Of a stretch of DNA of 43,905 bases, positions 4,076 through 43,877 are shown piece by piece. Made by a program: the position numbers and the translations under genes. Origin of the DNA: Bacteroidia bacterium (GTDB lineage: Bacteria; Bacteroidota; Bacteroidia; NS11-12g; UBA955); assembly GCA_036405075.1 (NCBI GenBank), contig DASWYG010000025.1, positions 1-43,905 of the forward strand, in the 5' to 3' direction. Within the stretch, counting starts at the first letter, position 1. Each line of letters begins with the position of its first letter. The notes beneath the pieces were generated by a model. That model searched no databases. It was not told the DNA's origin and worked only from the letters and a program-made list of their open reading frames with translations.

Positions 4076-4077
4076 TT

Positions 4078-14658: not shown

Positions 14659-14659
14659 T

Positions 14660-15250
14660 TTATTTCTTGTTTATAGTTTGAATCATTGAGTAGAATTCAA
14701 TGACACTTACTTTGTGTGGATCTATTGGATGGCCTTGCGCTCTTGATAGCTGTGCAATGACCTTGTAAATGCTTTCACTTTCTTTTGTTTTATAATCTTC
14801 AATTTCTGCTTTCTTCTCATTGACGATGGCCTTATTGATTGGGCTTGGATCAAGAATATAGTTGCACATGAGTTCAGAATATTGCTTTAGGTTTTCGAGG
14901 TACTCTTTGTAATCATTCGACAATCCGATTTGCTTTAAAAACTGGTCGTTGATTCGTTTGTAAATGCGATTCATGACCATTATTTCAATAGGTGCATAGA
15001 TGAATAGAAGCATAACAAACCCCAATGCGAATGCAATGTTGATGCTCAGTAAATAGGTAACAAATACCAAAATACCAACGATGAATTCACGGTTATTTTT
15101 AGCCAAAAGTCTTGTATCGCCAGTCTCATTGATTTTGAACCAATGTATTACGGGCAATGTTTCAATTGAACCATAATACCTAAGCCAAATCAAGCTTTGT
15201 ACGAAGGACTTGAGGGTATTTTTCGCGTATGTAATTTTGAACCTTTTCAA
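14660..15250 (-). CDS. Membrane-helix-containing protein in the tail-chaperone slot (196 aa from a TTG start)
   Basis: Overlaps the upstream ORF by 71 nt in the +1 frame. The only in-frame start in the overlap is TTG. Hydrophobic stretch FIVGILVFVTYLLSINIAFALGFVMLLFIYAPIEI. Confidence 0.45.
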   Translation of the reverse strand: MKRFKITYAKNTLKSFVQSLIWLRYYGSIETLPVIHWFKINETGDTRLLAKNNREFIVGILVFVTYLLSINIAFALGFVMLLFIYAPIEIMVMNRIYKRINDQFLKQIGLSNDYKEYLENLKQYSELMCNYILDPSPINKAIVNEKKAEIEDYKTKESESIYKVIAQLSRAQGHPIDPHKVSVIEFYSMIQTINKK

Positions 15251-15647
15251 TATTTTCTTGTTGTAATCCGATTGTAAAGCCTCCCCATTCTTGGTTGATA
15301 TCTTTAGAACCTTTCATTGGGTCAGCTGTTATTTCTATGTAATCTGCCCCAACCGGCACAATTACCCTGAATGATTTATAGAAGTCGCCGTCTTGGTACA
15401 ATGTCACCCTGTCTGTTGGTCTACCTGTTTCAATTTTAATTTTAACAGTATAAGGAGCGTAACCACCTCCAATAGAATCCAATCTTCTGCCTAAACTATC
15501 TTCACCCTTCTCAAACAATTGATCACGAGTGTTCAGATCAATGATCATTTCTTGCAGTTCAGTTGAGTTGAATATCTGCTGAAGTATCGCATGATGGTCA
15601 AGCGACTTGATCCAACCATTTACCGTATTTTTCACTGTCTCAAGCAT
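15180..15647 (-). CDS. Tail assembly or completion protein candidate (155 aa)
   Basis: Lies between the major tail and tape measure genes. Confidence 0.5.
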   Translation of the reverse strand: MLETVKNTVNGWIKSLDHHAILQQIFNSTELQEMIIDLNTRDQLFEKGEDSLGRRLDSIGGGYAPYTVKIKIETGRPTDRVTLYQDGDFYKSFRVIVPVGADYIEITADPMKGSKDINQEWGGFTIGLQQENIEKVQNYIREKYPQVLRTKLDLA

Positions 15648-15678
15648 ATTATTGGGGGCTTTTTATCGCCCCCTTTAA

Positions 15679-15852
15679 TCATTTTTTCTTTTCGGTTTTC
15701 TCCTTTGTTTCAGGCTTCGCAGCCTTTACAATGTCATCCCACAGAGTATTGATATCGCAATTGATTTTACCTCTGTGAGCCGCTTTAAATGCAGTCTCGC
15801 CCATTGCGTAACAAGCTGCTGCATCTCCACTGAAATTGCCTCTTATAATCAT
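15679..15852 (-). CDS. Small protein (57 aa counted from MIIRGNFSG)
   Basis: The ATG at 15852 lies 2 nt after the stop of the major tail gene. The longer track ORF (to 15885) would overlap that gene by 31 nt. Confidence 0.5.
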   Translation of the reverse strand: MIIRGNFSGDAAACYAMGETAFKAAHRGKINCDINTLWDDIVKAAKPETKEKTEKKK

Positions 15853-15854
15853 GG

Positions 15855-16808
15855 TTATTGAAGTGCAATTGCTACATCTTCCCAACCTGCATCATCGAAT
15901 GGTTTCGCTGCATCGGTTGAGCCGAGTGAAAGACGAAGGATGTCTGTGTTGGTTTGAGCGGTGAATGTGAAAGCATATCTACCTGGCACAGTTGTACTCT
16001 CAACACAGGTTGAAATTGTAACAGCACCCGCATCAGTCACATTGTACAATACAAAGTCAGCGGCTACCAATCCCTCAACTGCTGTTTTGGTTTTAATGGT
16101 GCCGAAGTCTTGAGTAATATCAACAGTGAATGTGGTTGTAGATCTGAGAGCCGCAACTTGTTCAAGTGTAGTATCTCTCATGCCTTTCCATTCGTTGATC
16201 AAATCAATACCAATGTCACTTGAGGAAATCCAAGAGAATTTCTCATCCAAAACGGTGTTCAGGAACTCAAATGCCAATGCACCACCTTCATTGGTGTTTC
16301 CGCTTTTAAACGCAAACATTGCATGTAGTGTGCTGTCGGCAAGTGGCAAAGGATAAAGTTTGCCTTTTGATTTCTCATAACCTCCCAGGTTTAAAGTATC
16401 TGATGTAATTAGTACACCAAGTTTACCACATCTGTGAGAGTTGATCTTACCAATGTAGGCTGGGCCGGTTCCTTTGAAGATTGCTTCAAATGTTCTTGAT
16501 CCGTAACGTACAAACTCTTTAGATCCGTCGTCAAATTCCTCGTAAACCGCATCGCCTTTAGGCATGTTGACATTTTTCATATCAACCGGAACAGGGAAGT
16601 AACGGGCATATCTATTGTCGTTGTATTGAAGAGCATCGAAGAACGCTTTATTCAAGGTTGCTGTCGATGTATCGATAAAGTTTTCGGTGCCGTCCTCTTT
16701 GTAGAGAGGCACAAAAGTAATCCTGAATGGTCTGCCAAATTTCTCAATGCAATTTGGCAATCCAAGATTCTTGACGTTTTCGTTGCATTCGCAAATTAAT
16801 CCGCTCAT
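15855..16808 (-). CDS. Major tail (tube) protein candidate with an Ig-like C-terminal region
   Basis: 317 aa, located upstream of the chaperone slot and tape measure. The C-terminal T/V-rich strands (TFTVDITQDFG...GRYAFTFTAQT) resemble the Ig-like extensions found on tail tube proteins. No sheath gene is present. Confidence 0.5.
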   Translation of the reverse strand: MSGLICECNENVKNLGLPNCIEKFGRPFRITFVPLYKEDGTENFIDTSTATLNKAFFDALQYNDNRYARYFPVPVDMKNVNMPKGDAVYEEFDDGSKEFVRYGSRTFEAIFKGTGPAYIGKINSHRCGKLGVLITSDTLNLGGYEKSKGKLYPLPLADSTLHAMFAFKSGNTNEGGALAFEFLNTVLDEKFSWISSSDIGIDLINEWKGMRDTTLEQVAALRSTTTFTVDITQDFGTIKTKTAVEGLVAADFVLYNVTDAGAVTISTCVESTTVPGRYAFTFTAQTNTDILRLSLGSTDAAKPFDDAGWEDVAIALQ

Positions 16809-16822
16809 TTTCTATTTAAATT

Positions 16823-17389
16823 TTAACATTCGTGTTTATCGTAATCGTATCTGAGAGAGAAGTTGAACCGGAAACAATGAAATGGATTCATGTCTCTGTG
16901 CTTCATTCCTGATTCTCTCATAAATCCAGGGTAATCGCTTAAAACCGCTTCTATGCCGGTTTGAATTCCTTCCAATGTGAAACCATATAGATCTTGATTG
17001 CAGAAGTATTGAACATCTTGCCTTGTGATCTCATCCGGCCTTGCATCGGTAACCTTTAATTTCTTGAGGTTGACAAAGAATATCAAATGCACATTTGCGA
17101 CATTTTGATTCTCCTGGGTGTCGACTTCAATTGTGTCACCAACCCCAAAGAATGAGGTCACTTTCACTTTATCGTCGAGTAATACTTCTTTGTATTCGTT
17201 TTTAGTCAAATAGACTTCGGGTACATAACCATCTGTTTTTTGGTTCTTGTACGCCCTGTCATAGCATAACCAATCAGTAGTAGACACATCACTTAAACCC
17301 CATCTTGCAATAAGTTGAGTATGCAGCCAGTTTTGAAACTGTTGTATCACATAATCAATGCCTTTTGGAGTGGGTGACTGAATCTTCAT
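16823..17389 (-). CDS. Head-tail joining or neck protein candidate (188 aa)
   Basis: Called on position alone, between the capsid and tail genes. Confidence 0.45.
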   Translation of the reverse strand: MKIQSPTPKGIDYVIQQFQNWLHTQLIARWGLSDVSTTDWLCYDRAYKNQKTDGYVPEVYLTKNEYKEVLLDDKVKVTSFFGVGDTIEVDTQENQNVANVHLIFFVNLKKLKVTDARPDEITRQDVQYFCNQDLYGFTLEGIQTGIEAVLSDYPGFMRESGMKHRDMNPFHCFRFNFSLRYDYDKHEC

Positions 17390-18441
17390 GATTGATACAT
17401 GGTGACCTTATCGTCATTAAAGAAGTTTTTATTAAGTCGTTGAATCTCTCGTTTCAATCTATTTTTGAATCCTGCTGAGTATGGCACAGTATCGGTAGGC
17501 ATATCTTGATTGAGTTCAGTGTACAATGAACCGAGTTGTTCTTTGTTTATTCTTTCGGTCGAATTCGATCTTATTGAATAAATGATGTTCTCGATCACAT
17601 TGCAGGTCACTTGTAAGCCAATCGCCTCATCAAACATTGAAGGATTTCTAATGATCACTTGCGTGAAATCTCTGACAGATGTCAGCTCCATGTTGATGCC
17701 GTAGTTTAAGTCATTATAAACCACACTATCGACATCATAAGTCAATGGACCAGTTTGATCAGCTTTAAACCCTCTGTAACCGAAAATGCTAGGACAAGCC
17801 CACTCACACACATCGTAATCAATTGCTCTAACGTCTCCCAAGTCTTCTTGAAAGTAGCCTATGAAGAAGTCTCCGGCCTTGTAAGTAGATGATGAAATTG
17901 AAAGCAATAAGTCATCAATGTTGAATACTGTTTCAACTCCCGCCGAAACTGTGACCGATTTCTCCCAAATCTTTCCTTTGAACGAATGGAAACAATACAT
18001 GTTGAATGTTTTATCGCCATCGAATAGAAGGGACAAAGAATTCAATCGCACAGCATAACTACTATCATTCGCAACATTGATCTTGAAGCCACAAAATTTG
18101 TTTTCATTCTCAATCAATGTCACCTCTTTTGGTTCACGTCTACTGAACAACTGCAGATTTTCAATGATGATGTCTTTATTGAACACCCCTTGAAGTATTC
18201 TTACGATTGCAGCCTTTTGAAGCGATTCTAAATATGCGTTGAAGTTGGCATTGGAAATGTCAGCATCTTCATGCGTATCTTTGATGTTTTTTATCGATAC
18301 TGCAGTGTGAAAGTCATCAAAGTATCTACCGGATTTAGAAATCAGATTGTTTCCGGTAAGAATATCATACCCACTCAATGTGGGCTGTCTCCAACCCACA
18401 CGAGTGAATAATGAACTTATGACTAAATCGGACTGAAACAC
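17386..18441 (-). CDS. Structural protein of unknown role (351 aa)
   Basis: ATGA-coupled and directly downstream of the capsid gene. Confidence 0.45.
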   Translation of the reverse strand: MFQSDLVISSLFTRVGWRQPTLSGYDILTGNNLISKSGRYFDDFHTAVSIKNIKDTHEDADISNANFNAYLESLQKAAIVRILQGVFNKDIIIENLQLFSRREPKEVTLIENENKFCGFKINVANDSSYAVRLNSLSLLFDGDKTFNMYCFHSFKGKIWEKSVTVSAGVETVFNIDDLLLSISSSTYKAGDFFIGYFQEDLGDVRAIDYDVCEWACPSIFGYRGFKADQTGPLTYDVDSVVYNDLNYGINMELTSVRDFTQVIIRNPSMFDEAIGLQVTCNVIENIIYSIRSNSTERINKEQLGSLYTELNQDMPTDTVPYSAGFKNRLKREIQRLNKNFFNDDKVTMYQS

Positions 18442-18453
18442 GAGATCTTAAGA

Positions 18454-19467
18454 TTAAACTTTTGCTACCTCGAAAACCACTGACTCAGTTGCAACTGATA
18501 CAGGTGACAAGCATGAAGCCATATCAACTGACAATTCAAATTGCATTACTACGTCCTGAGAGCTTCCGTTTGATCCTGATGCATCTGCTCTTTCAGCATA
18601 TCCATGCACAGCGAAAGTGATGCCCAAACCCCAAGGGTCTTGCATAACACCGAAACCGCCTACATAAGACATGTAATCTCCTTCACCTCTACGATTCACA
18701 GGTGGAATCCAAGGCAACAAAGCAAATGAGCCTTTTGGCATAATCAATCCCAATGCACCAGTGGTGTAATTAGCATCAGCCAATTCGATTGATTCAGCGA
18801 TGTTCATGCCGTTGAATTGGAAAGTCAGGTTGGCATTGTTTCCGGCTCCTTGTGCTTTTTGATACTCAGCATCGATGAAACCGAGTGGATTCAAGATCAC
18901 ATCCAGTTCATCACGGTAGTTGTTCTGTCTCATCATTGATTTGATGGTTTGGAAAAACTGATTCGCTGTGCTGATCTCGAATGCATCATTTGCACCATTG
19001 AATGAACCACCTTGAGTTGCAGCATTGATTTGTGTTCTTTGCGCTTGAAGGTAAGTCACTTGATCAGTCTCAATGTCTTCAATGATGTTCTTCATTGAGT
19101 TCTCGAATTGCTGCGCAAGTGCTTGTTCAAAAGCAAACGCGTTGTTATCCATTTGTTTCAATGAGATACTGAATGGATCGGAAAAAGTAGCCCATGAAAG
19201 AGCCAATACAAATGAATCACCTCTGTTTCCAGTGTGATTGTGAGTTCTTGCTGAACCTGATGCACGTTTCGAACGTTTGAGGATATTGGCCTCAACTGCT
19301 CTGTCTTCTCTTTTTCTGAGATCCGCAGCACCTGGGATCAAGAAATCTTGGTTCATTAAACCAAGTGCGACAGCCGGAGAAACTTTCATTCTGTTCTCCG
19401 GTGCCTGATATTTTTTGTTTAGCAACGCTTGTGCTTTGACAAGGTTGGTTGGGCTAAAATTTGCCAT
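18454..19467 (-). CDS. Major capsid protein candidate
   Basis: 337 aa, directly after a scaffold-like gene and preceded by a 110-nt leader. No TM segment and no enzyme motifs. Confidence 0.6.
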   Translation of the reverse strand: MANFSPTNLVKAQALLNKKYQAPENRMKVSPAVALGLMNQDFLIPGAADLRKREDRAVEANILKRSKRASGSARTHNHTGNRGDSFVLALSWATFSDPFSISLKQMDNNAFAFEQALAQQFENSMKNIIEDIETDQVTYLQAQRTQINAATQGGSFNGANDAFEISTANQFFQTIKSMMRQNNYRDELDVILNPLGFIDAEYQKAQGAGNNANLTFQFNGMNIAESIELADANYTTGALGLIMPKGSFALLPWIPPVNRRGEGDYMSYVGGFGVMQDPWGLGITFAVHGYAERADASGSNGSSQDVVMQFELSVDMASCLSPVSVATESVVFEVAKV

Positions 19468-19578
19468 TTTTGGAGTAATTATTTAAAATTGCTCCCTCGC
19501 ATCCTGGGGAATAAATCCTTGGTCAGTATCTTGACCTATTGTTAATCTTTGCCCGGTATCTTGGGCGATTATCCTTTT

Positions 19579-20403
19579 TTAAGCGTTCAAGTCGAATGTT
19601 GGATTCGCTTTGACAGCTTCGCTAACAGCTTGAGAGAACTCTTCGCCGTTAACTGATTTACCTGCATCTTGAAATGACTTTTCAAGCTCACTCAATTTGA
19701 GGTAAGTTGTTTTCTTTTCACTCGATCCGCCTCTGCCTTGTTTGCCCGAGTCTTCTTCAGTAATCCATTTGCGTTCTTGAAAATAAGAATGAATGACATC
19801 TTTAACCTCAAGTGGTGCTTGAGTTGTTTTGTCCTTCACAGTCTCATTGCCTTTTTTAGCAACAAGTTTGCCGTCTTCTTCAACAAACGTAAACTCTCTT
19901 TGAAGCAACATCAAAGATTCTTCATCCTTGAGTGATCCGATTCTATTTGACGGGAAAGATGATAAAATTGTTTGATTGAGTGATTGAGTTTTGAGTTTGG
20001 TTTCAATCTCTGTTTTTTCGGCTTGAGCAGCTTTGAGATTCTCTCTGAGCGTTTCTAAAGATTTGTTCAGCTCTTCGACTTTCTTGTCAGGTTTTAAATT
20101 AGCATCTGCAAGTGTTTTGCTTTTTAACGCCTCGACAAACTTGTCTGCATCTTTACCCTCGAAATCTAAACCCAGTTTCTCTTTTTGCTCTTTGATGAGC
20201 ATTTCAATTCCGCTCTCTTTGCCCTCTTTGTAGCCTTGTGTTTTCTGATTTTTATCGCGGGTAGCGAGTTCATCAGTGGTAAAGACTGACACTTCAGGTA
20301 AGGTCAATTCTACTTCTTTCTCGTCTTTAATTGCATTTTCAAGATCAGATTCTTTGATCTTTAATGCTTTGGCAATTGCGGTTATTTGGTCTTTCTTTAG
20401 CAT
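19579..20403 (-). CDS. Scaffolding protein candidate
   Basis: 274 aa, K/E-rich and predicted helical or coiled-coil. It lies between the portal and capsid genes. Confidence 0.6.
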   Translation of the reverse strand: MLKKDQITAIAKALKIKESDLENAIKDEKEVELTLPEVSVFTTDELATRDKNQKTQGYKEGKESGIEMLIKEQKEKLGLDFEGKDADKFVEALKSKTLADANLKPDKKVEELNKSLETLRENLKAAQAEKTEIETKLKTQSLNQTILSSFPSNRIGSLKDEESLMLLQREFTFVEEDGKLVAKKGNETVKDKTTQAPLEVKDVIHSYFQERKWITEEDSGKQGRGGSSEKKTTYLKLSELEKSFQDAGKSVNGEEFSQAVSEAVKANPTFDLNA

Positions 20404-20418
20404 AAGTATGTGATAAGG

Positions 20419-20814
20419 TTAGTCTTTCCTATAAAGACATTTCGAGTCGATGTAAACTTTCATAGTTCCGCTTCCGGTCGTGTTTGTTCGAAAGTGACTA
20501 TAACAACCAGGATCTACTACCTTTACCAGTTTGGTATTGGTGGCGTAATTCAAAGCGGTCATAGAGTCGATTTTAAACCAAGTGTTTCCGTCAATACTAA
20601 CTTCAAAATAGGTCTTTCCGGCAACGGTTCCTGATGCTTTTGTCAGTTTGAATTGAAACACAAATACAGTTGCCTTTGCAGGGGCCCTGAAAGTAGTGTA
20701 CTTTGTTGCCGTGTTACTCAGGCTGTCACCTGAACCGGTCATCGGTACGGCTTGTGCGCTGGAAATCGCAACAAATGCGAACATCAGCATAATGAGTGTG
20801 ATTAATTTTTTCAT
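20419..20814 (-). CDS. Secreted small beta-rich protein inside the head module (131 aa)
   Basis: Signal peptide MKKLITLIMLMFAFVAISSA|QA, with Gln at +1. The remainder is T/K/V-rich. Confidence 0.65.
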   Translation of the reverse strand: MKKLITLIMLMFAFVAISSAQAVPMTGSGDSLSNTATKYTTFRAPAKATVFVFQFKLTKASGTVAGKTYFEVSIDGNTWFKIDSMTALNYATNTKLVKVVDPGCYSHFRTNTTGSGTMKVYIDSKCLYRKD

Positions 20815-20835
20815 TTTAAATATGAGTGTTGATTT

Positions 20836-21291
20836 TTAGCCTTTTAAAAAGTACTTCACATTGCGATCGTGTGAGCGCAAATTCAAAGTGTTTGCTTGTT
20901 CTTGAGAAATCTTCACATTATCACGGATGAGTCTGATTTTCTCTTCTTTTTCAATGATGAAATTACCATCTTCATCTGTCTTTCTGGAACCGTCTTTCTT
21001 CGTAGAGAATGTGGTCCTGATTTGCCACTCTTCAAATATTAGGTTCTTGGATTCAGAAGCCTCTTTCTTCGGTTTTGGTGCTTTGGCGGTTTCTGTTTCT
21101 GCGCCTGCTTCACCTTTACTTGCCTTAAATGCTTCGAATGCTTCAGATGTGACAAATTCAATCACTTCTGTTACTTCTTTGGGCGCAAGTCCTTCTTGTG
21201 CCAGTGCCGCTTCTGCTGCTGCAATATCGGCCTTAATCTGAGCCTCAAACTTGAGTGCTAAAGATTTCTTTTTCATGTGGTTTAGTGCCAT
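20836..21291 (-). CDS. Head-module hypothetical protein (151 aa)
   Basis: ORF immediately downstream of the portal gene, with an A/E-rich N-terminal half. Confidence 0.55.
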   Translation of the reverse strand: MALNHMKKKSLALKFEAQIKADIAAAEAALAQEGLAPKEVTEVIEFVTSEAFEAFKASKGEAGAETETAKAPKPKKEASESKNLIFEEWQIRTTFSTKKDGSRKTDEDGNFIIEKEEKIRLIRDNVKISQEQANTLNLRSHDRNVKYFLKG

Positions 21292-21293
21292 GA

Positions 21294-22901
21294 TTATTTA
21301 ATTATTGGTTGTGGTTCTTGTATATTTTTAGCCTTCACATACTCAGAGAGGCTTATGTTTAATTGGTCAAGTTTCTTGATTAAAATTTCATTATCCGGTA
21401 ACTGGTTGAGCCATTCACCGAAGTATAATTTCTTATTGAAATCCTCGAAATTGGAGATATTGGATTTCGCCTCACCTATTGTCAAATGGACAAACGGCTC
21501 AAGCCTCATCAATTTGAGGTGCTTATTGAGTTCTATTGCATTATTTTGGTACTTTGAATAGTAATACTCGGCCAGTAATTCATCAAGTACGGATGTTGGA
21601 GATCCTTTAGACCTTGCCTCTTGATATTTTTTCCAAATCACATCAGGTCCCTCGATCAGGTATCTTCTACCTAAATTGATTGAACAGCCTTTATAGGTGT
21701 TTTCGAAATAGAACTTACCTGTTTTATCTGTTACGAACTTTTCAATCGATTCAGCCCACTTACTTAACCTTTCTAAACGGTCATTCATTGGCTGCATATC
21801 TGAGACAATCTCAGTTGCAGTCTTTTGACCATCGGTACTCAATCCATTGGTTTTGGCTTCATCTGTTTTGCCCCAATATGTTGAATGCATAGAAGATTCA
21901 AGTTCCTTGAGTTCTTCTGACATTTTGGTCCATCCTTCGATATCGGGTGTAGAATATCCGGCAATGTCGGGACTGATCGTTGGTTGACCCTCAAGTGGAA
22001 TTGGTAGCGTAATAATTTGAGATGAATCTTGAGTAACACTTTTACCGGTTCCGTTGCATGTTTTACAGTCTTCACCATGCTTATGTCCTGAACCTTTACA
22101 ATCGGAGCAAACAGTTTGGTACTGCCATGCTTTCGGAAACCCGTGTTTGAGTTTAAAGATAGTTTTTACCGATCTTTCTCTTAAGAACTGATCAGCAATT
22201 TCAATTACTTCTGCATCGGGTGAAACAAATGTCTCAGATGTTTTTGATTTTATATCCGAGATGACAATTGCCGGGACTTTTCCAAAATAGTTCTTAAATG
22301 TTTTATCTTGAATTACTGTGACGGTTTCTTCGCCATCGTATCGAACAAGATAGTCGAATGCATCGTCAACAACTCTAAACTGATCCTTTTCATCTGTTCT
22401 GAATACAACATACTCAACGTCTCTACCTTTAAGTTGGTAGTCAAAGATGACTGAAATTGACTTGTAAGTAGGATAAGTCTCATTGTCGCCAACCTCCATA
22501 AACACCAAGCCCATTGGATCAGTGTGAAAGTATTGTTTTGCAAATACTTCAACCCAGTTGCGCACTGAATATCCGTTGTAAATATCATTCAGTATCTCGA
22601 TGAGTTGCTTTTGTGAACTAGCACCTATATCATAAAAAGTTGAACCACCTTTGGCAGTGAATATCTTATCTTCAGGTCTATGAAGTCGTGCAAATATGTC
22701 AACGTTTGATTGAGCATATTTCTTTCTAAGTTCAAGTTGTTTTTTATTTTCAAGCCCTGATACTTCACTCAATAAATCATCCGAACCTTTACCGGTAATG
22801 TGTTGAGTTAGCTTCTTAGATTCGCTCTGAGCAGCATTAATCATGTCCTCATTAGGATTGTTTTTGATAATGCGCTTGATGTCGTCGAGACTTAGAATCA
22901 T
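21294..22901 (-). CDS. Portal protein candidate carrying a DnaJ-type CxxCxGxG zinc-finger insertion
   Basis: About 535 aa and the first structural gene after terL. The track start at 22910 is TTG, and the ATG at 22901 gives MILSLDD. The motif CSDCKGSGHKHGEDCKTCNGTG is encoded at 22041..22109. Confidence 0.5.
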   Translation of the reverse strand: MILSLDDIKRIIKNNPNEDMINAAQSESKKLTQHITGKGSDDLLSEVSGLENKKQLELRKKYAQSNVDIFARLHRPEDKIFTAKGGSTFYDIGASSQKQLIEILNDIYNGYSVRNWVEVFAKQYFHTDPMGLVFMEVGDNETYPTYKSISVIFDYQLKGRDVEYVVFRTDEKDQFRVVDDAFDYLVRYDGEETVTVIQDKTFKNYFGKVPAIVISDIKSKTSETFVSPDAEVIEIADQFLRERSVKTIFKLKHGFPKAWQYQTVCSDCKGSGHKHGEDCKTCNGTGKSVTQDSSQIITLPIPLEGQPTISPDIAGYSTPDIEGWTKMSEELKELESSMHSTYWGKTDEAKTNGLSTDGQKTATEIVSDMQPMNDRLERLSKWAESIEKFVTDKTGKFYFENTYKGCSINLGRRYLIEGPDVIWKKYQEARSKGSPTSVLDELLAEYYYSKYQNNAIELNKHLKLMRLEPFVHLTIGEAKSNISNFEDFNKKLYFGEWLNQLPDNEILIKKLDQLNISLSEYVKAKNIQEPQPIIK

Positions 22902-22907
22902 TAAGTA

Positions 22908-22953
22908 CAAATTTAGATTGATGAAATGGGTTCAATCGGACGAGATGCGAACG
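22908..22953 (-). promoter_or_regulatory. Copy P3 of the bipartite promoter-like element, upstream of the portal gene
   Basis: Minus strand: CGTTCGCATCTCGTCCG-N21-TAAATTTG. The octamer matches the Bacteroidetes -7 consensus TAnnTTTG and ends 6 nt before the ATG at 22901. Confidence 0.55.
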
Positions 22954-22978
22954 AAAAAAGCCACCTTGTGAGTGGCTT
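22953..22978 (-). terminator. Rho-independent terminator ending the tRNA island
   Basis: Minus strand: AGCCAC-TCACAAG-GTGGCT followed by TTTTTCG. Confidence 0.6.
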
Positions 22979-23232
22979 TAAACTTTTAATAAAACAAATA
23001 ATTCCAAAGTATCTACCGAGAAGCACGATTTCAAACAAGGCCGTCTTTCCGGCTGCCATATCCATCTGCAATTGATGAACAAAACTCATTAATACTATCA
23101 ATGAGGGGGCTTAAATAACTACGGGGCTAACACTGTGTACTTTAGTGATACTTCTCAAATGTACATCAATCAGAGTTTCGAACCTCAGATCAGTTTCATT
23201 TAAGGATTTCGCCCCTTTCTTAAAAATTGTTG

Positions 23233-23303
23233 AGCTGAGTAATGGAATCGAACCATTTTAAACAGGGTTGCAATCTGTGACCTAGCCACTCGGACAACTC
23301 AGC
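23233..23303 (-). tRNA. tRNA-Cys(GCA): tRNA-Cys (anticodon GCA), non-canonical
   Basis: 71 nt: GCTGAGT TG TCCG AGTGGCT AGGT C ACAGA TTGCAAC CCTGT TTAA AATGG TTCGATT CCATT ACTCAGC T. Supporting features are a perfect 7-bp acceptor stem, a perfect T arm with loop TTCGATT, U33 and A37, and the U73 discriminator that is a Cys identity element. Weak points are a D stem with only two G-C pairs and an A31.C39 mismatch. CCA is not encoded. Confidence 0.7.
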
Positions 23304-23504: not shown

Positions 23505-23572
23505 TTACCCGGCTCTTCACCGGGTATCTTTTTTAATCATTTATCGGTCAAATAAAGAACGTAAAAGGGACA

Positions 23573-23618
23573 CAAATATTTATATATAATCTGAATCTAA
23601 AACGACGAGATGCAGACA
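23573..23618 (-). promoter_or_regulatory. Copy P2 of the bipartite promoter-like element, upstream of the tRNA island
   Basis: Minus strand: TGTCTGCATCTCGTCGT-N21-AATATTTG. It begins immediately after the terL stop codon. Confidence 0.5.
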
Positions 23619-25144: not shown

Positions 25145-25471
25145 TCAGTTTAGATTGATTTCTAATTCTCGACCCATATCAAAGCAAAAATTTTGTAAGT
25201 GATGCAATGTGTATATTTCGCATAAATGAACTTCTGTTTCACCAAAATACACTTGCCCCTCTACTGAAATAATTATGTCGTCCTTAAAGTAATACCCAGT
25301 TTGACCTTCATTAAACCCGCATTTCAATAGTATTTCTTCGGTGATGGGGATGGGTTTACACCACGGTCTTTCATTATGCCATATTTCTTCAATTGTGCTA
25401 GGCGAGGCTTGTCTGTATTCACCATTATGGTCATACCAATTCCCTATCCTTAATTCGTTTGCTTGTATCAT
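25145..25471 (-). CDS. Paralog family A protein (108 aa)
   Basis: Shares ELRxGNW, PITEEILLKCGF and LHxLQN...ELEINL with 31417..31794. Confidence 0.65.
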   Translation of the reverse strand: MIQANELRIGNWYDHNGEYRQASPSTIEEIWHNERPWCKPIPITEEILLKCGFNEGQTGYYFKDDIIISVEGQVYFGETEVHLCEIYTLHHLQNFCFDMGRELEINLN

Positions 25472-25476
25472 TTTGT

Positions 25477-25761
25477 TTAACTTTTTTTGCGTGTTTTTGG
25501 TCTCAATACGGCTTTTTCGGAGACAAAAGGGTTTTTGTTTAATGTTTTTGGCTCAACTGGTATACTGTTTTGATTAATTAATAAAGATCCATCTTTGGTC
25601 CACTTTCCATATCCAACAAAATCGCCTAACTGAAGTCCATTGGGTTTGTGTACCTTCAAAACATCGCCCTCTTCAACGATGTAAAACTTTTGTTTTCCAA
25701 CATTACCGAGGGATGCTTGACATTTAAAGTCTTCTATTGGTGTTGTTAATTCGCAGTTCAT
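25477..25761 (-). CDS. Hypothetical protein (94 aa)
   Basis: ORF in the tightly packed minus-strand operon. Confidence 0.55.
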   Translation of the reverse strand: MNCELTTPIEDFKCQASLGNVGKQKFYIVEEGDVLKVHKPNGLQLGDFVGYGKWTKDGSLLINQNSIPVEPKTLNKNPFVSEKAVLRPKTRKKS

Positions 25762-25796
25762 ATTTGGTGTTTATGGTAGTATATACTACTATGTTT

Positions 25797-26045
25797 CTAA
25801 CTTTTATCTTTCCAGTTACTCTTATCACATACATACATTTTGAGTTGATCATAACTCCATGGGCAAAAGAATTCTGAACCATGACATACTACAACCGATT
25901 TGTCTTCATGCGGTCCAATAGCACCAATCTCAAAGAATCTCATTGACTTTGATTCATGCATATCATCACTGGTTTTGATGCCCAATTCTTTTAGATGAGA
26001 AGACTCCTCGGTGTAGAACAGTATTTCAATGTCAATGTATTTCAT
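25797..26045 (-). CDS. Hypothetical protein (82 aa), distant paralog of 27038..27301
   Basis: Shared pattern: RFFEIGAIGPHEDKSVVVCHGSEFF...DQL against IYNIDAISPFYLGPDRQYSIVHSGASNF...DDL. Confidence 0.55.
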   Translation of the reverse strand: MKYIDIEILFYTEESSHLKELGIKTSDDMHESKSMRFFEIGAIGPHEDKSVVVCHGSEFFCPWSYDQLKMYVCDKSNWKDKS

Positions 26046-26776: not shown

Positions 26777-27022
26777 TCAACCTATCTTTGCCAAATCATG
26801 TAAACCACTGGATAAATACACTGGTTGCAATGGTTGATTGAATGTCAACTGTTGAAGGTAAACACACCTTGTCTTTGACACCTCTTCAAACTCTTCGTCG
26901 GTCATTTGCCAACATGTGATCACCTCACCAGTCTCAGGTATTCGCAAAGCCGGTAATGGTTGATATTCGGGCTGATTTGCTCCGAATACTACGTTTTGTC
27001 CTTTAAATTCTTTTGGTTTCAT
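26777..27022 (-). CDS. Hypothetical protein (81 aa)
   Basis: ORF in the operon. Confidence 0.55.
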   Translation of the reverse strand: MKPKEFKGQNVVFGANQPEYQPLPALRIPETGEVITCWQMTDEEFEEVSKTRCVYLQQLTFNQPLQPVYLSSGLHDLAKIG

Positions 27023-27037
27023 GTCGATTTATATAAG

Positions 27038-27301
27038 TTAATTTCTACTTGGTAAATGTATTTCGAGTTCTCTGTGTTTATCAATCAATGCCTCTAGGTC
27101 ATCAACTTTCATATCTATCATGAAATTGGATGCGCCTGAATGAACAATTGAATATTGACGGTCAGGTCCTAAATAGAATGGGCTTATTGCGTCAATGTTG
27201 TATATGACCACTGTGTATTTTACACCTTCATCAATCTCTTTGATCATTTCTTCAATGTCGGGCGAATTTGAATGAAATATTGTTTCTATTTTAAGTTTCA
27301 T
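27038..27301 (-). CDS. Hypothetical protein (87 aa), distant paralog of 25797..26045
   Basis: See 25797..26045. ATGA-coupled to the upstream gene. Confidence 0.55.
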   Translation of the reverse strand: MKLKIETIFHSNSPDIEEMIKEIDEGVKYTVVIYNIDAISPFYLGPDRQYSIVHSGASNFMIDMKVDDLEALIDKHRELEIHLPSRN

Positions 27302-28395: not shown

Positions 28396-30071
28396 TATGC
28401 TTCACTTTGTGATGCCATACAGCACCATTTACTTGTCACTGAATCCCACTCAAACATCACAGTTAATACTTTGCCTAAAACGGTTGTCGTTGGCAGTGTT
28501 GCTGCTCTACTTGCGAATGATGCACCCCATGTGATTGCCCTTGCTGTGCCGTCGTCTTTAATCCTATATTCGAGTTGATCAAAATCGCTTGGTGTACCGG
28601 ATAAATTTGCGCTCATTGAACTGATTGCTAATGCCAATGCAGTTATGCTCACTCTATCACAATTGTCAGTGTTTACAGTTGGTGTGGCATTGCTTGTGAT
28701 AGTGGTGACACGCTTTGTGATTCGCTTATTGGTCAGGGTTGCCGTTGCGCTGTTTTTAGTTGAATCGCTTGTATTGTCAACATTACCCAAACCAACATCA
28801 CCCTTTACAAGTGTGAGATCGGTTTTAAGTTGTTCCATGGTTCGATTGGTCCATGCACCTGATTTTCGCTGAATGATGTCATCGTTTGATGGACTTAAAC
28901 CGGATATCGAAGTTAAAGCTGCGTTAATTGGTTGGTAAAGTGTATCAAAATAAGTCTTAAGAGTTGCTTTGATGTTTACCCATGTGACTTTTTTTGATGC
29001 GTTTGAGGCTGCTGAATCTGCTATACCAATCATGTCAGCATCAACTGGGGTTGTTTTGCCCGATAATCCGTTGATTACAGCCCCTAAAGTTACCGCACCC
29101 GTGCTTCCATCAAGTGAAAGAAATTGATCAGTATAATCAGCCTTAAACCAATTTGATGCAAATGTCGAAGTTGATGCATTGTCAGCAATGGCAATTACTC
29201 GGTCGTTTATTGCGAATGTTTGACCGTCAACAGTTCCACCAACTGAGACAATGTAAGATGCTCCGGCTTGTGCAGTACCTCCACCCGGAAACGATCCGCT
29301 TGAGGCATCCCATGATCCTTTTAAGACAACTGCGGCATCGAGATTGTTAACACGAGTTTCTATATCATCGAGATCAACTGCTTGAGTAACTGTGATGTTT
29401 GCAAGTTTCGCTTTTTCTGCTGCAGTAGAAAATTTCTTGGTAGCACCTTCGGTGATGTCATCGGTATCATCTACCGCTTTCATAAACGCTCCGGCGGCTG
29501 CAACATTGGTTGAATCCGTTACATCGGCTCCGGCTTCAATACCTGCAAGTTTTGTCGCTTCTGTGGATGAGAAAAATAGGTTTACCGCACCCTCTGTGAT
29601 GTCGTCTGAATTTGTAATGACATCTTGTTTTGCATCTAGTGCGGCTTGTAAATCAGTTTGATCTGAAAGAGTTCCTGAAATGTCACCCCATGCACTTGCG
29701 CCACCTCCACCACCGGCAGCGGTTTGAATCTTAATTTTACCGTCCGAAGTGAATACTTTGAAGTCGCCTGAGTACATCAATACTTCACCCGGTGCGAGAG
29801 AAACTTTGAATAAATCGAATGCGCTGCCAATCTTTTTTTGAAGTGTGATGGTATTCGAAGTTGATTCATGTTTGTTCTTAATCGACAACATCGTGACCTC
29901 AACAGTAGCATTTATTCCAGGTATTACAATTTCTGTTGTAGTTGCTGAGTTGATTGAAACACCGTATGAACTTTTATCACCTGAAATCGGCTCATAATTC
30001 ACAATAACGTCAATGTCCGCCGCAGAGGACGTGACAATTTGAATGGTGTTATCGGAGTTTTTATGGTTCAA
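28395..30071 (-). CDS. Tail fibre protein
   Basis: [23 protein letters not shown] and repeated DDITEGA-x-F-S-x-E-x-KLAGIE motifs are typical of phage tail fibres. Also has a Gly run and G/T/S/A-rich strands. Confidence 0.7.
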
Positions 30072-30412
30072 AGTACAGGCTTTCTATTCAGCATTTGGCG
30101 AAGTACGAATGAGTGATTGTTACCTATTCCAACTACTTCATTGATGTAGTTTTGAGCGGCTTCAACTCGACCCTCTTCGCACAGTTTTTTTATTCTTTTA
30201 AAGTGATTTACTTCTACTCCCCCGCTTCTTACTCTCTCATAAACCACTGTCGGATCAACAGGATTCCCATTAGATTGCTTGGTTATACCTTTTGCGATAA
30301 GCGATGTACCAGTGACATACTCAACTGTTTTTTGGTTTTCCGCTGTGTAGCATTTGGGCAATCCCATTGCAATGCTCTTAATGTGCTTAATATCGGATTT
30401 GGAGAGTTTCAT
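30068..30412 (-). CDS. Hypothetical basic protein (114 aa), first gene after promoter-like element P1
   Basis: ORF that is ATGA-coupled to the tail-fibre gene. Confidence 0.6.
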
Positions 30413-30470
30413 TTTAGCAAAAATATACTACCTATCAAGCGCATGAGTGCTGAGTTGATTGGCGTTTACG

Positions 30471-30516
30471 CAAAAATCGTTTTATTAAATAGGTCTATTC
30501 AGACGAGTTGCGAACG
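30471..30516 (-). promoter_or_regulatory. Copy P1 of the bipartite promoter-like element, upstream of the tail-fibre/packaging block
   Basis: Minus strand: CGTTCGCAACTCGTCTG-N21-GATTTTTG. It matches P3 at 15 of 17 positions in the upstream box and has identical spacing. Confidence 0.5.
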
Positions 30517-31229: not shown

Positions 31230-31393
31230 CAAAATGATTTTTTTGTTTTCATTCTATGCTTTTGTATTAAATGTTTGCGCTCTAGTGCTTTTGTTTTAAG
31301 ACTTGCGTATTCCTCGGCAAATCTTATTACCCAACTATCCATAGCAGATATTTTATTCCTGTACTTTTTTAAAAACAGTTCCTCAGCTTTCAT
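31229..31393 (-). CDS. Micro-ORF (54 aa, MKAEELFLKKYRNKISAMDSWVIRFAEEYASLK...)
   Basis: It starts at the ATG that ends junction-repeat copy A. It replaces the F/L-rich plus-strand track ORF 31131..31403. Confidence 0.45.
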   Translation of the reverse strand: MKAEELFLKKYRNKISAMDSWVIRFAEEYASLKTKALERKHLIQKHRMKTKKSF

Positions 31394-31419
31394 TTCTATT
31401 TAATTAATGGTTGTTTTCA
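31391..31419 (-). repeat. 29-nt gene-junction repeat, copy A
   Basis: Minus strand: TGAAAACAACCATTAATTAAATAGAAATG, running from the stop of the upstream gene to the start of the downstream gene. Contains the palindrome TTAATTAA. Confidence 0.9.
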
Positions 31420-31794
31420 TAGGTTAATTTCTAGTTCTTGACCTGATAAGGCGTAAATAAGGTTTTGAAGTTGATGGAGGTGTTCAATATAAACCTCTAC
31501 TTTTGATATATTATCTACAAGGAAAGTGTTATTTACTTTATTGTGCCATATAGATATAGCAACATTTGAATACCCAATATATTTTCCTATTTCTTCTTTT
31601 TTCTCAAACCCACACTTCAATAGTATTTCTTCGGTAATGGGGATGGGTTCAATTTTATCTGCATTGTTGTATATTGCATTACCTTCAAGATGCACAGAAC
31701 CTAGATTGAAATCTAAATATATCCCATCTATCTGATGGAAATCTCCAAGCAATGACACCCAGTTACCTAATCTTAATTCTCTTACGTTTATCAT
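31417..31794 (-). CDS. Paralog family A protein (125 aa)
   Basis: ELRLGNW, PITEEILLKCGF and HLHQLQNLIYALSGQELEINL, a paralog of 25145..25471. Confidence 0.65.
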   Translation of the reverse strand: MINVRELRLGNWVSLLGDFHQIDGIYLDFNLGSVHLEGNAIYNNADKIEPIPITEEILLKCGFEKKEEIGKYIGYSNVAISIWHNKVNNTFLVDNISKVEVYIEHLHQLQNLIYALSGQELEINL

Positions 31795-31820: not shown

Positions 31821-32216
31821 CTTTAATTCAGCTTCTAATTTTTGTATTTGAAGTTCAGTCCAATCATGATTGAGTAGTTCAAAATGTTCATTTCTGAAAT
31901 CTTTGACTGATTGAATGCTTGATTTAGCGTTTTTAATTTTGGTAAACAATTCTTTCATCATTTGCGCCTTACAGTATCTTATAGCTTCGCTTTCTTTAAC
32001 AAAGTAAAACACACGCTTATTGTCTGAATATCTAGAATATTCAATTACCACTTCACCTGAGTTAATTTTACGGGGTATTTTTTCGTCGGATGGCAAATAC
32101 AACTTTTCAGAATCTACTTTATAGATAGTAATAGATTCGTACTTCATTGTATTTTTGTAAACTTTATAAACTTTGTCTCCTGCTGTTAATTCGATAAATT
32201 TTGTTTTTGCTATCAT
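31818..32216 (-). CDS. Hypothetical protein (132 aa)
   Basis: ORF bounded on both sides by junction repeats. Confidence 0.6.
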   Translation of the reverse strand: MIAKTKFIELTAGDKVYKVYKNTMKYESITIYKVDSEKLYLPSDEKIPRKINSGEVVIEYSRYSDNKRVFYFVKESEAIRYCKAQMMKELFTKIKNAKSSIQSVKDFRNEHFELLNHDWTELQIQKLEAELK

Positions 32217-32242
32217 TTCTGTTTAATTAATGGTTGTTTTCA
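32214..32242 (-). repeat. 29-nt gene-junction repeat, copy C
   Basis: Matches copy A at 28 of 29 positions. The similarity to copy A continues for about 70 more nt into the 3' end of the adjacent gene. Confidence 0.9.
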
Positions 32243-32612
32243 TAGGTTAATTTCTAGTTCTTCGCCTGTTAATGCGAAGTAGAGGTTTTGAAGTTGGTGG
32301 AGGTATTTGATATGTCCTTGTTTAAATGATATAAATGTATCGTCTTGAATTATGTCACATTCTCCGCAATTAAAGTTATAAAACCTCAACCCCATCCTTG
32401 GGTTAAAATATATAACTGCCCATTCTCCACTCTTTTCAACCCCACCCCTCGTAAAGTGTTATTTCTTTATGTTGTAATGGATTTAAAGCGTATAAGGCAG
32501 CTAGCTTCAACTCCCCATTTGTATGCTCAGAATCGTGTTCTAAAGTCCATCCATGTTTTTCTAATTGTTCCCGTCTCTCGTCGGAAATCAATTCAATTCC
32601 TGTTTTATTCAT
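32240..32612 (-). pseudogene. Decayed chimeric gene: an unrelated N-terminal module fused to a family A C-terminal module
   Basis: The frame from the ATG at 32612 gives MNKTGIELISDERREQLEKHGWTLEHDSEHTNGELKLAALYAL...ITLYEGWG and then hits TGA. The family A homology can only be followed across that stop and one frameshift, ending ...GHIKYLHQLQNLYFALTGEELEINL at 32240. Confidence 0.5.
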
Positions 32613-34879: not shown

Positions 34880-34996
34880 TTACTTTGATTGATTGTGATT
34901 TGATTTAATAATTCTCTTACTCCAGTTATACTGCACAATCGCAACTAGGAGCCATCCAATGAAGATGTAAACAGGTGTCAACGCTAATACTATCAT
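34880..34996 (-). CDS. Micro-ORF encoding a 38-aa single-TM peptide
   Basis: MIVLALTPVYIFIGWLLVAIVQYNWSKRIIKSNHNQSK. ATGA overlap with the stop of 34993..35373. Confidence 0.4.
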   Translation of the reverse strand: MIVLALTPVYIFIGWLLVAIVQYNWSKRIIKSNHNQSK

Positions 34997-35373
34997 GACA
35001 ACGAATTGAGTTTATTTGTGATGTTTTGAATGTGCGCCGAGAATTTCCGATTAGAATCCAGTAGATCATTTGCCGTATTTATCATATTTACGGAGCTGCT
35101 GTGAGACTTTCTATTCATCAGCGAGGCAATCATACCCTTGTGGTCTGTAACGTGCCTATAAAGCAAAATTGCCCATGCAGGTCTTGCGTAAATTAAATTG
35201 CCTGACTTTTTCTTTGACAAAAGATCGTCTTGAGTGACTTTAAATTCAGCGCAAACACATTCTTGTATGCTTGATTCATTGAAGAGTATTGTTTGTTTTT
35301 CCATTTGGTATTTGATTTTTAAATTATTGGGGCAATGGTCCTTGGTTGAAATTTTGGTTCTTTGGTGTCTCAT
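34993..35373 (-). CDS. DnaA domain IV-like DNA-binding protein (126 aa)
   Basis: FKVTQDDLLSKKKSGNLIYARPAWAILLYRHVTDHKGMIASLMNRKSHSSSVNMINTANDLL...HIQNITNKL follows the pattern of the DnaA C-terminal domain (DL-S-R...AR-A-YL...IG...DH-TV...I). Confidence 0.55.
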   Translation of the reverse strand: MRHQRTKISTKDHCPNNLKIKYQMEKQTILFNESSIQECVCAEFKVTQDDLLSKKKSGNLIYARPAWAILLYRHVTDHKGMIASLMNRKSHSSSVNMINTANDLLDSNRKFSAHIQNITNKLNSLS

Positions 35374-35582
35374 TCGAAATTTAGTGCTTGAATGTGTGCT
35401 TGTTTCTCGCAGTCGATAATTGCCTGAACTGCTGCCTTTGGGCTACTAAACATTATCTTACCTTCATGTGTTTGATGACGATATTTTGAAATATCGATTC
35501 TGAACATCGATACAATTTCATCGATTGAATAACCTCCAATAAAGTGAGCCTGTACAACGTCTATGTAAATTTGTTCGTTCAT
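35370..35582 (-). CDS. Hypothetical protein (70 aa)
   Basis: ORF, ATGA-coupled on both sides. Confidence 0.55.
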   Translation of the reverse strand: MNEQIYIDVVQAHFIGGYSIDEIVSMFRIDISKYRHQTHEGKIMFSSPKAAVQAIIDCEKQAHIQALNFE

Positions 35583-37367: not shown

Positions 37368-37457
37368 TTTTGTTGAATTGGTGAAAGAATGCCAGTCTCT
37401 TCCCGGCTGTCTCGTCTCATTTAATTCATCATTTAGCTAATACCCTGCTTCGATGTT

Positions 37458-37507
37458 GTGAGTGTGGAGGAATCGAACCTCTCATTACGCCGACCGTATC
37501 ACACTCA
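37458..37507 (-). ncRNA. tRNA-like minihelix (acceptor stem, T arm and one short hairpin, with no anticodon arm)
   Basis: TGAGTGT GA TACG-GTCGG-CGTA ATG AGAGG TTCGATT CCTCC ACACTCA C. It has a perfect 7-bp acceptor stem, shares the 11-mer GGTTCGATTCC with the tRNA-Cys, and is only 50 nt long. Confidence 0.4.
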
Positions 37508-42706: not shown

Positions 42707-42902
42707 CCGTGTTTACGTTAAATGTTTCCTCTTCGTACTGCTCGTTTTCAAGATGTTCATCGCTGAACCTTCTGCATTTGGCCATCATTTCTGCATACTC
42801 TTGATCGGTCATTTTAGAAATGAGATTGTCGATTGAGTTTGTCTCAACATATCTATTGGAAGTTGAGAATGAAACTGAACTGTGGTGGTGAGTGATTATC
42901 AT
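42696..42902 (-). CDS. Hypothetical protein (68 aa)
   Basis: ORF, ATGA-coupled to the cro-like gene. Confidence 0.55.
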   Translation of the reverse strand: MIITHHHSSVSFSTSNRYVETNSIDNLISKMTDQEYAEMMAKCRRFSDEHLENEQYEEETFNVNTDDN

Positions 42903-43093
42903 GCTGCTTGAAATGAATTAAAGTATTGGGTCATGCAGTCGATAGTTGACTGAGTTGCTTTACCATTATTAAGGGCTTCCCTTATTGTTGGTTTTGAAAG
43001 GCCTGTACCTGCTTTAACATCGTCCAGTGTGATGTCGAACATGATTGTTCTCCATTTTTTAAGTACCTTTAAATCAATGGGTTTACGTTTCAT
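42899..43093 (-). CDS. Cro-like HTH regulator
   Basis: 64 aa with a helix-turn-helix, VKAGTGLSKPTIREALNNG. It is the first gene of the leftward operon and diverges from the repressor gene. Confidence 0.65.
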   Translation of the reverse strand: MKRKPIDLKVLKKWRTIMFDITLDDVKAGTGLSKPTIREALNNGKATQSTIDCMTQYFNSFQAA

Positions 43094-43158: not shown

Positions 43159-43193
43159 AAGGACAATCCTTACAATAAACAAGGAAAATCCTT
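43159..43193. promoter_or_regulatory. Two operator-like 13-bp palindromes, AAGGA-N3-TCCTT, 22 bp apart
   Basis: AAGGACAATCCTT at 43159..43171 and AAGGAAAATCCTT at 43181..43193, each followed by ACAA. A third palindrome, TGTAAAATAATTTACA, lies at 43200..43215. Confidence 0.6.
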
Positions 43194-43232
43194 ACAAAAT
43201 GTAAAATAATTTACAAATCCTTGATACACAAC

Positions 43233-43877
43233 ATGAAAAATTTACAAAATGACGGACAAACCTTAAAACAGTGGCTTAGAACAAACGGCTACGATGTTTC
43301 ATGGTTAGCGGAAAAGCTAGGGATCACGACCCAATCCGTCTATGAACAACTAAGAAAACAAAATATTGGTGACATTTTTAAAGCAAAACTTGTAAGGGCC
43401 AACCTTACTGTTTTTACAAACGAAAACAATATTGCAGCGAATTCACCCGTTAAATCAGTCCAATCAACAAAACTTAATCTTATGATAGTTCCTTTAAAAG
43501 CCTATGGAGGATTTCTCACAGGCTACGCAAACCGTGTTTTTCTCGATTCTCTTGAATATTCAGAGTTTCCGTTTATAAAAGGCCAGTGTTATGCATTTGA
43601 AGTCGACGGCTTCTCTATGTACAATCCTGGTGATGAGAATTCAGTCAAACCCAGTGATTATGTTGTATGCACCGAAATACCCGGACCGGACTGGCTCAAT
43701 AAGGGTAAAATTTATGTCTTTCAAACTATCGATGGAATTATAATTAAAGAATTTAAAGCCATAGAGGATGGCAATTTCATTTTAAGATCATTGAATCCAG
43801 AGTATAAAGATATCCCTCCTATACCCGTTAAATCGGTCAAAAAAATCTATTATAAAGAATACATCATTAAAAAATAA
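43233..43877 (+). CDS. CI/LexA-like repressor with an S24 autopeptidase domain
   Basis: N-terminal HTH (VSWLAEKLGITTQSVYEQLRK). The C-terminal VDGFSMYNPGD...IIIKEFK fits the Ser/Lys dyad of S24 peptidases. The track start at 43221 is TTG, with an ATG at 43233. Confidence 0.8.
   Translation: MKNLQNDGQTLKQWLRTNGYDVSWLAEKLGITTQSVYEQLRKQNIGDIFKAKLVRANLTVFTNENNIAANSPVKSVQSTKLNLMIVPLKAYGGFLTGYANRVFLDSLEYSEFPFIKGQCYAFEVDGFSMYNPGDENSVKPSDYVVCTEIPGPDWLNKGKIYVFQTIDGIIIKEFKAIEDGNFILRSLNPEYKDIPPIPVKSVKKIYYKEYIIKK

Follow-up and report, generated by a model that had tools for sequence, protein, structure and literature searches.

A candidate late promoter class with a phage-specific upstream box in a Bacteroidota temperate-type siphophage genome

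Genomic setting of the elements

The window, by which the whole analysed stretch of 43,905 nucleotides is meant, looks like a temperate-type siphophage genome that is transcribed from right to left, with almost all of its genes carried by the minus strand. Its right end holds a CI-like S24 repressor gene and a weakly Cro-like gene that diverge from each other, followed by genes of recombination and replication type, encoding a YqaJ protein, an exonuclease of the RNase_T type, Dam, a primosomal-type protein, a DnaA_C-like protein and an HNH protein, and then by a run of small ORFs. Operator-like repeats (GTAAGGATTNTCCTT, present twice together with a partial copy) were noted at 43159..43224, between the diverging repressor gene (43221..43877, plus strand) and the Cro-like gene (43093..42899, minus strand). 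No integrase was found among the ORFs searched, which include little of the left arm (730..21291). Three elements of 46 nt, designated P1, P2 and P3, are located on the minus strand further to the left, in the following setting.

30471..30516, minus strand: P1, at the junction of early and late genes, starting 2 nt past the stop codon of a 47-aa ORF
30516..30502 and 30478..30471, minus strand: parts of P1, namely the box CGTTCGCAACTCGTC and the -7-like octamer GATTTTTG
30418..30425, minus strand: P1b, a box of the canonical TAHHTTTG form (TATTTTTG), 5 nt upstream of the start codon (ATG at 30412) of the 114-aa ORF
30068..30412, minus strand: 114-aa ORF (pI 9.7), the first ORF after P1
23573..23618, minus strand: P2, which starts 1 nt after the TerL stop codon
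23618..23604 and 23580..23573, minus strand: parts of P2, namely the box TGTCTGCATCTCGTC and the octamer AATATTTG
23232..23303, minus strand: tRNA-Cys (GCA), the sole detectable tRNA downstream of P2
22957..22979, minus strand: intrinsic-terminator-like hairpin with a T-run, immediately before P3
22908..22953, minus strand: P3, directly after the T-run of the terminator hairpin
22953..22939 and 22915..22908, minus strand: parts of P3, namely the box CGTTCGCATCTCGTC and the perfect -7 octamer TAAATTTG
21294..22901, minus strand: portal gene (phrog_7376 portal protein, E = 3e-59), the first gene of the P3 unit

Downstream of P1 lie the 114-aa ORF and the genes for two tail-fibre-like proteins, TerS and TerL; P2 faces approximately 590 nt of non-coding DNA that contains the tRNA-Cys; and the structural genes run from the portal gene, downstream of P3, to position 224. 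A first-pass annotation of this DNA had placed the three copies in front of a tail-fibre/packaging block, a tRNA island and a portal/structural block, and the first and the last of these assignments hold, while the supposed tRNA island amounts to one detectable tRNA, with nothing beyond it being recovered by Rfam between P2 and P3. The same island also carries a canonical TACATTTG box (23156..23163, minus strand) between tRNA-Cys and the terminator at 22957..22979, about 180 nt from the latter; this box may drive a small non-coding RNA, and Rfam returned only sub-threshold terminator-like hits in that region.

Copy number and architecture

The three minus-strand 46-mers are present as first quoted (30516..30471, 23618..23573 and 22953..22908), and they are the only exact matches in the window to CTCGTC-N23-NANNTTTG, the spacing of 23 nt being confirmed in each. 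Similarly, exact matches to the box GCAWCTCGTC are limited to P1, P2 and P3 across the 43.9-kb window, three being observed against 0.077 expected on both strands from base composition (probability of at least three, 7e-5). For the full pattern the expectation from base composition is about 1.3e-4 copies, and in 300 shuffles CTCGTC together with the octamer at that spacing occurred on average 0.03 times and never more than once. All three copies are intergenic, within the non-coding 7% of the window, and are located on the gene-carrying (minus) strand. Frequent occurrence of the motif inside coding sequence was not seen, as the three matches to GCAWCTCGTC that lie within ORFs each contain one mismatch and lack the octamer. 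A position-weight scan built from eight elements (the three of the window and five from its relatives, see below) yielded no fourth copy on either strand, and no box was found at the window's other promoter-like sites.

P1 and P3 are identical at 34 of 46 positions, P2 has the box and TTTG in common with them, not the spacer, and nothing is conserved upstream of the element in the three copies. The box is G+C-rich, spans 15 nt (CGTTCGCAWCTCGTC) and is asymmetric, its orientation being that of transcription in every copy, and inspection by eye revealed neither a dyad symmetry nor an internal direct repeat that would be consistent across copies. Since lambdoid Q binding elements are found within or adjoining late promoters, and a terminator is present in this region, the boxes might be thought to act as loading sites for a Q-like antiterminator or as RNA processing or antitermination signals. 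Such a role is very improbable in view of the fact that there are three separate elements, that P3 is positioned after and not before the terminator, which suggests re-initiation rather than read-through, that no Q-like protein was found among the searched ORFs, and that the copies have neither a common structure nor a match in Rfam.

Proximal octamer, -33 position and predicted leader length

In Flavobacterium johnsoniae the -7 element consists of T-12 A-11 .. T-8 T-7 T-6 G-5, with the start site located 4-5 nt further on (PMC6847099). The resemblance of the octamer to the sigma-A -7 element TAnnTTTG (TAHHTTTG), which had been pointed out in the first-pass annotation, is borne out by all three copies, given that P3 (TAAATTTG) matches perfectly and that P1 (GATTTTTG) and P2 (AATATTTG) miss only T-12. 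The canonical -33 TTTG is indeed missing, as the corresponding position (19-21 nt upstream) reads TGAA, CGAT and GTTT. This absence had been taken as a sign of dependence on an activator, for which it is weak evidence, since genuine F. johnsoniae promoters themselves show hardly any trace of a -33 element (PMC6847099). On the other hand, P1 and P2 lack the near-invariant T-12 and would thus be weak core promoters, as expected if an activator is needed. When the final G of the octamer is set at -5, GCAWCTCGTC falls at -45..-36, just upstream of the -33 position, and the 15-nt box extends from about -50 to -36, while transcription from P1 would start near 30466/30465 according to the 4-5 nt rule (PMC6847099). 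An ECF sigma promoter (-35 'AAC' and -10 'CGT', 16-17 nt apart) was also considered and rejected, as GCAAC and CGTC are separated by a single nucleotide, and the window ORFs searched revealed no ECF sigma domain.

The coding strand of the window contains nine matches to TAHHTTTG, four of which are intergenic, including those of P3 and P1b. As judged from its sequence and position, P1b would be a second promoter, of the leaderless type, between P1 and the first late ORF, and it could provide box-independent basal expression.

The portal ATG (22901) is located 6 nt after the TTTG of P3, and a NAnnTTTG or TTTG box is found 6-9 nt before the portal ATG in every examined relative with at least 53% portal identity; in many distant relatives such a box precedes the portal ATG by 16-22 nt. 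The conserved distance between octamer and portal ATG supports a promoter function. An octamer at 6-9 nt would leave the portal mRNA nearly leaderless, with only 1-4 nt ahead of its start codon, and that of the window would probably have a leader of 1-2 nt. This arrangement predicts that nearly leaderless mRNAs are routinely made for a major structural operon, as opposed to the leaders of more than 10 nt that characterize 87% of the predicted F. johnsoniae transcripts (PMC6847099).

The position of the box relative to the octamer is also relevant to another possible function, namely that of an operator at which a repressor silences late promoters in the lysogen, in the manner of the asymmetric 'stoperator' sites of cluster A mycobacteriophages. 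The window does encode a CI-like S24 repressor and a Cro-like protein, and the box is asymmetric and oriented with transcription in all copies. We nevertheless consider this function improbable, because the CI/Cro-operator-like repeats (GTAAGGATTNTCCTT, 43159..43195) are unrelated to the box, the site is centred near -43 and does not overlap the core -7 element, and the imperfect -7 boxes of P1 and P2 fit activation better than repression.

Conservation and co-variation of the box in relatives

A 12-kb megablast query found no match in the INPHARED phage collection, and an exact-peptide scan of IMG/VR with the portal protein returned nothing. Portal homologues with 45-65% identity were obtained from metagenomes and from Bacteroidota genomes, including Chitinophaga, Parabacteroides and Prevotellaceae. 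The 46-nt geometry is conserved at syntenic sites in four of these relatives (L324, L078, L079 and L323; 61-65% portal identity), as the assignment to a promoter class had anticipated, and the 23-nt spacing is constant in the three window copies and in five elements from these four phages. L324 (62% portal identity) contains the 46-nt element twice, the first copy (337..382, TGTCACATTCTCGTC...CATATTTG) directly after the TerL stop and the second (726..771, CGTCACAAACTCGTC...TAAATTTG) after a terminator hairpin and 7 nt before the portal ATG, with a tRNA-Met between the two. In L078, L079 and L323 the variants ATCGTT, GTCGTG and GTCATC are present before the portal gene with the 46-nt geometry kept. 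The consensus of the eight elements from five phages reads cGT....A.cTCGTc..atta...c.a.tT.aT.aA...A.aTTTG, in which the core of the box and TTTG are most conserved.

A different box is found in L076, whose late module is collinear with that of the window (TerL 76-77%, fibres 64% and 70%, and TerS 61% identical). This genome has three elements, all with the box GAMTGTCCGCTAT, at the three sites occupied in the window: upstream of the late module's first ORF (1066..1103), at the TerL stop, where it is followed by tRNA-Met and tRNA-Arg (7066..7103), and after a hairpin and before the portal gene (7688..7725). The order of a hairpin followed by an element before the portal gene is therefore common to the window, L324 and L076. 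The box types that stand against each other in the L324/L078/L323/L076 lineages, which derive from the read sets SRR33465378, ERR8156864, ERR2683115 and ERR9698295, are CTCGTC and GTCCGCTAT. Over the box region, identity amounts to 14-17/22 within the window and 16-19/22 within L076, versus 6-12/22 between the two, and the spacers are not conserved among copies, with the exception of window P1 versus P3 (12/16). Boxes that are alike within a genome and different between genomes, together with drifting spacers, fit a genome-specific recognition factor, and this pattern supports the existence of a specific trans-acting factor.

Comparable arrangements were observed in more distant relatives. L003 (AAAAAGTTACGCACATTTT) and L004 (CACCGTACCAATTCGTAATT) each possess their own box of 19-20 nt in two copies, with identical spacing to the TTTG octamer, one copy ahead of the packaging genes and the other ahead of the major capsid gene, and L073 and L319 have an A-rich box in common, with two copies each. 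Searches of viral and of metagenome contigs with GCAWCTCGTC-N24-ANNTTTG gave about 120 single matches each, which are chance-like (best match 31/46, never more than one per contig), and the longer patterns of the window-type and L076-type boxes gave four chance matches each, located in contigs without protein similarity to the window ORFs.

As the copies are positioned at module junctions of a mosaic genome, they could in principle be recombination scars or module-boundary repeats that are kept by descent and have no regulatory role. This is extremely improbable, however, because conservation is limited to the box and TTTG while the spacers drift, because paralogous copies are more alike than orthologous ones, and because the spacing is exact in every genome.

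Search for a recognition factor

The first-pass annotation had stated that no activator or sigma-like factor could be identified in the window, and this is still the case after searches of about 40 ORFs with Pfam and 30 with PHROGs, which detected no sigma factor and no homologue of MotA/AsiA, Q, RinA/ArpU or Mor/C, remote homologues being possible. The only proteins returned by the search for regulators were CI-like, weakly Cro-like, DnaA_C, HNH, Dam and recombination/replication proteins. No regulator signature is present in the ORFs just upstream of P1 (32216 to 30518; 47, 150, 41, 54 and 125 aa), nor did Pfam provide anything informative for the ORFs that flank the boxes of L003, L004 and L076. 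No early genes are common to the relatives that were compared, and the close relatives are represented by short contigs without early regions.

The 114-aa ORF that follows P1 occupies the one position of the conserved late module at which the window and L076 have unrelated genes, as the ORF at this position in L076 encodes 96 aa without detectable homology, while the flanking late genes are 61-77% identical. Small late ORFs at 25477..26045 and 26777..27301 differ between the window and L076 as well. A confident AlphaFold model was obtained for the 114-aa protein (pLDDT 94), and with Foldseek this model had no neighbour among the solved structures of the PDB and only uncharacterised viral neighbours, none of them annotated, in BFVD. 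Its homologues among protein representatives (HMMER) include a metagenomic protein of 2075 aa that is matched in 16 stretches, residues 10-69 fitting one of them. Neither the search with the predicted structure nor the homologues suggest DNA binding, and the 114-aa ORF is a weak candidate for the specificity factor.

Another candidate is encoded at 34993..35373, among replication-type genes, and is a stand-alone DnaA domain-IV-like protein of 126 aa, which could plausibly bind an asymmetric site as a monomer. In L070 a DnaA domain-IV-like gene directly follows the DnaB helicase gene, and a word-indexed search with the DnaA_C-like ORF gave one homologue besides itself. These two best candidates, the 114-aa ORF and the DnaA_C-like ORF, are unconvincing, and the ORF at 35370..35582, which had been proposed earlier as a candidate as well, had no match at all.

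The outcome of this search accords with a reading in which P1, P2 and P3 are ordinary strong host promoters, with the box serving either as an upstream or extended -33-type element that is read by the host sigma factor or alpha subunit, or as the site of a host activator, and in which boxes differ as hosts differ. The -7 octamer is of the host type, and different hosts are plausible because the relatives were recovered from distinct metagenomes and several Bacteroidota families contain portal homologues. We regard this host-only reading as unlikely, given that the boxes are G+C-rich and specific to phage lineages even where late genes are 61-77% identical, and that the other promoter-like sites of the window are without the box.

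Proposed role as late promoters

It is suggested that P1-P3 are late promoters which combine a host sigma-A -7 element with a box bound by a candidate factor, a reading to which we assign a probability of roughly 0.6. As regards its parts, P1, P2 and P3 are very probably promoters, and the box is probably a specific site for a putative protein. The element behaves as a late-gene promoter class would, as had been proposed, being placed at the junction of early and late genes as well as ahead of the tRNA and the portal gene, with a geometry that is conserved in relatives and with no intragenic copy. A phage-specific late promoter class is a well-known kind of element, and a repeated motif that occurs solely at the start of late transcription units and has been retained by relatives, as found here, is typical of it.

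According to the proposed mechanism, the NAnnTTTG octamer would serve as the -7 element and be read by the host primary sigma factor, while a sequence-specific protein that co-evolves with the box would bind there and recruit or stabilise RNA polymerase, either as a class-II-type activator or as a substitute for sigma region 4. This protein is most likely a product of the phage itself. In this scheme, transcription of the tail-fibre and packaging genes would be turned on by P1, and P2 would drive tRNA-Cys and the surrounding non-coding RNA up to the terminator. This terminator (22957..22979) would end the transcripts from P1 and P2 immediately before P3, and P3 would then restart transcription to produce the nearly leaderless portal mRNA that is predicted to head the structural operon.

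Concerning known systems, the elements resemble the sigma-ABfr promoters of Bacteroidota (-33 TTTG / -7 TAnnTTTG) in their NAnnTTTG octamer, their AT-rich spacer and a start-codon distance that would allow transcription to begin 4-5 nt past the octamer (PMC6847099). They differ from these promoters in having no TTTG 19-21 nt upstream, in the G+C-rich 15-nt box at about -50 to -36, and in the lack of T-12 in P1 and P2. The middle promoters of phage T4, which depend on a MotA box and on AsiA and exemplify sigma appropriation, retain the host proximal element, carry an asymmetric phage-specific box upstream and bring about a temporal switch, and these MotA-dependent promoters appear to be the nearest analogy. 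In both systems the proximal part is still of the host type, and a phage-specific box at a constant distance takes the place of the upstream element; unlike in T4, no MotA or AsiA homologue was detected (Pfam/PHROGs), the box is centred near -43 instead of -30, and both the host phylum and the sigma factor are different.

Late activators are also known from other temperate phages, in particular RinA/ArpU/LtrC/Alt of Gram-positive siphophages, Mor/C of phage Mu and Ogr of phage P2, and the activator gene is usually located just upstream of terS. The present elements resemble the RinA/ArpU/Mor/C/Ogr systems in that promoters precede packaging and structural genes in a temperate phage, activator dependence being only proposed in our case. 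They differ from the RinA/ArpU/Alt systems in that no homologous activator gene was found immediately upstream of the packaging module, and from the Mu Mor/C sites in that the box is without dyad symmetry. With lambda PR' and Q they have in common a late control point where early genes give way to late ones, and a DNA element that lies within or beside the promoter. The window, by contrast, has three candidate promoters where lambda has one, P3 follows directly on a terminator, and no Q protein was found. The window elements thus belong to none of these activator families, as the searches revealed no MotA, AsiA, Q, RinA/ArpU or Mor/C homologue and no sigma-domain protein.

One may tentatively speculate, as a possibility that we consider rather doubtful, that Bacteroidota siphophages use an undescribed family of small specificity proteins which, much as in sigma appropriation, take over the weak -33 contact of the unusual sigma-ABfr holoenzyme, each lineage having its own protein-box pair. 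Such lineage-own pairs would account for boxes that are the same throughout one genome but not in two phages whose late genes are 60-77% identical. Concerted evolution of the box could alternatively stem from a host factor (in different hosts) or from recombination between the copies.

Significance

Next to nothing has been described on how phages of Bacteroidota control their late genes. A thin literature search found no described counterpart for the box, for its geometry relative to the Bacteroidota -7 element or for its lineage-specific co-variation, and queries on TAnnTTTG in phages and on late promoters of Flavobacterium phages, equally thin in coverage, found no work on promoter classes. 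In a 2026 preprint on Bacteroidales prophages, activators of middle-late genes are only hypothesised (10.64898/2026.06.25.734096). The element provides a sequence handle that marks the starts of late operons in uncultured phage contigs, and the box represents a concrete bait for its cognate factor in DNA pull-down and one-hybrid screens. The elements are also candidate orthogonal regulatory parts for the engineering of Bacteroides and Flavobacterium, where promoters differ from the E. coli type, and if the family of specificity proteins is real it would supply naturally orthogonal promoter-activator pairs for Bacteroidota. The finding would gain further interest if the factor represents a new way of redirecting the sigma-ABfr holoenzyme.

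Additional observations

Several other features were noted in the window and its relatives. A promoter-like motif, TTTGCTTATATTTGC, is common to L074 (~4070..4085, after a TerS-like gene, PF16677) and L323 (~2465..2481, upstream of TerL), and is reported as a separate conserved promoter-like site in relatives, without box elements. The 111-nt gap before the major capsid gene of the window (ATG 19467) contains no -7 box; it holds two hairpins with the same loop, AAGATAC (19521..19566, minus strand), which may constitute a translational or processing signal.

A tRNA-like minihelix with an acceptor stem and a T arm (GGTTCGATTCC), which was not called by ARAGORN, is located at 37460..37506 (minus strand) and is followed by a GACAGCCGGGAAGAGACTGGCA hairpin at 37390..37411 (minus strand). 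Near-identical GACAGCCGGGAAGAGACTGGCA hairpins are present in the tRNA islands of L076 (~7585) and L324 (~570), and weaker hairpins of this type occur in the window at 23508..23524 and 23039..23056.

Finally, the window encodes three paralogues of phrog_10066, a family whose function is not annotated (31417..31794, 25145..25471 and 32240..32395, minus strand), one of them a 51-aa remnant, with the C-terminus ...HQLQNL..L.G.ELEINL. A direct repeat of 38 nt is found at 32213..32250 and 31390..31427, and phrog_10066 homologues are located upstream of the late region in L076 and L074.
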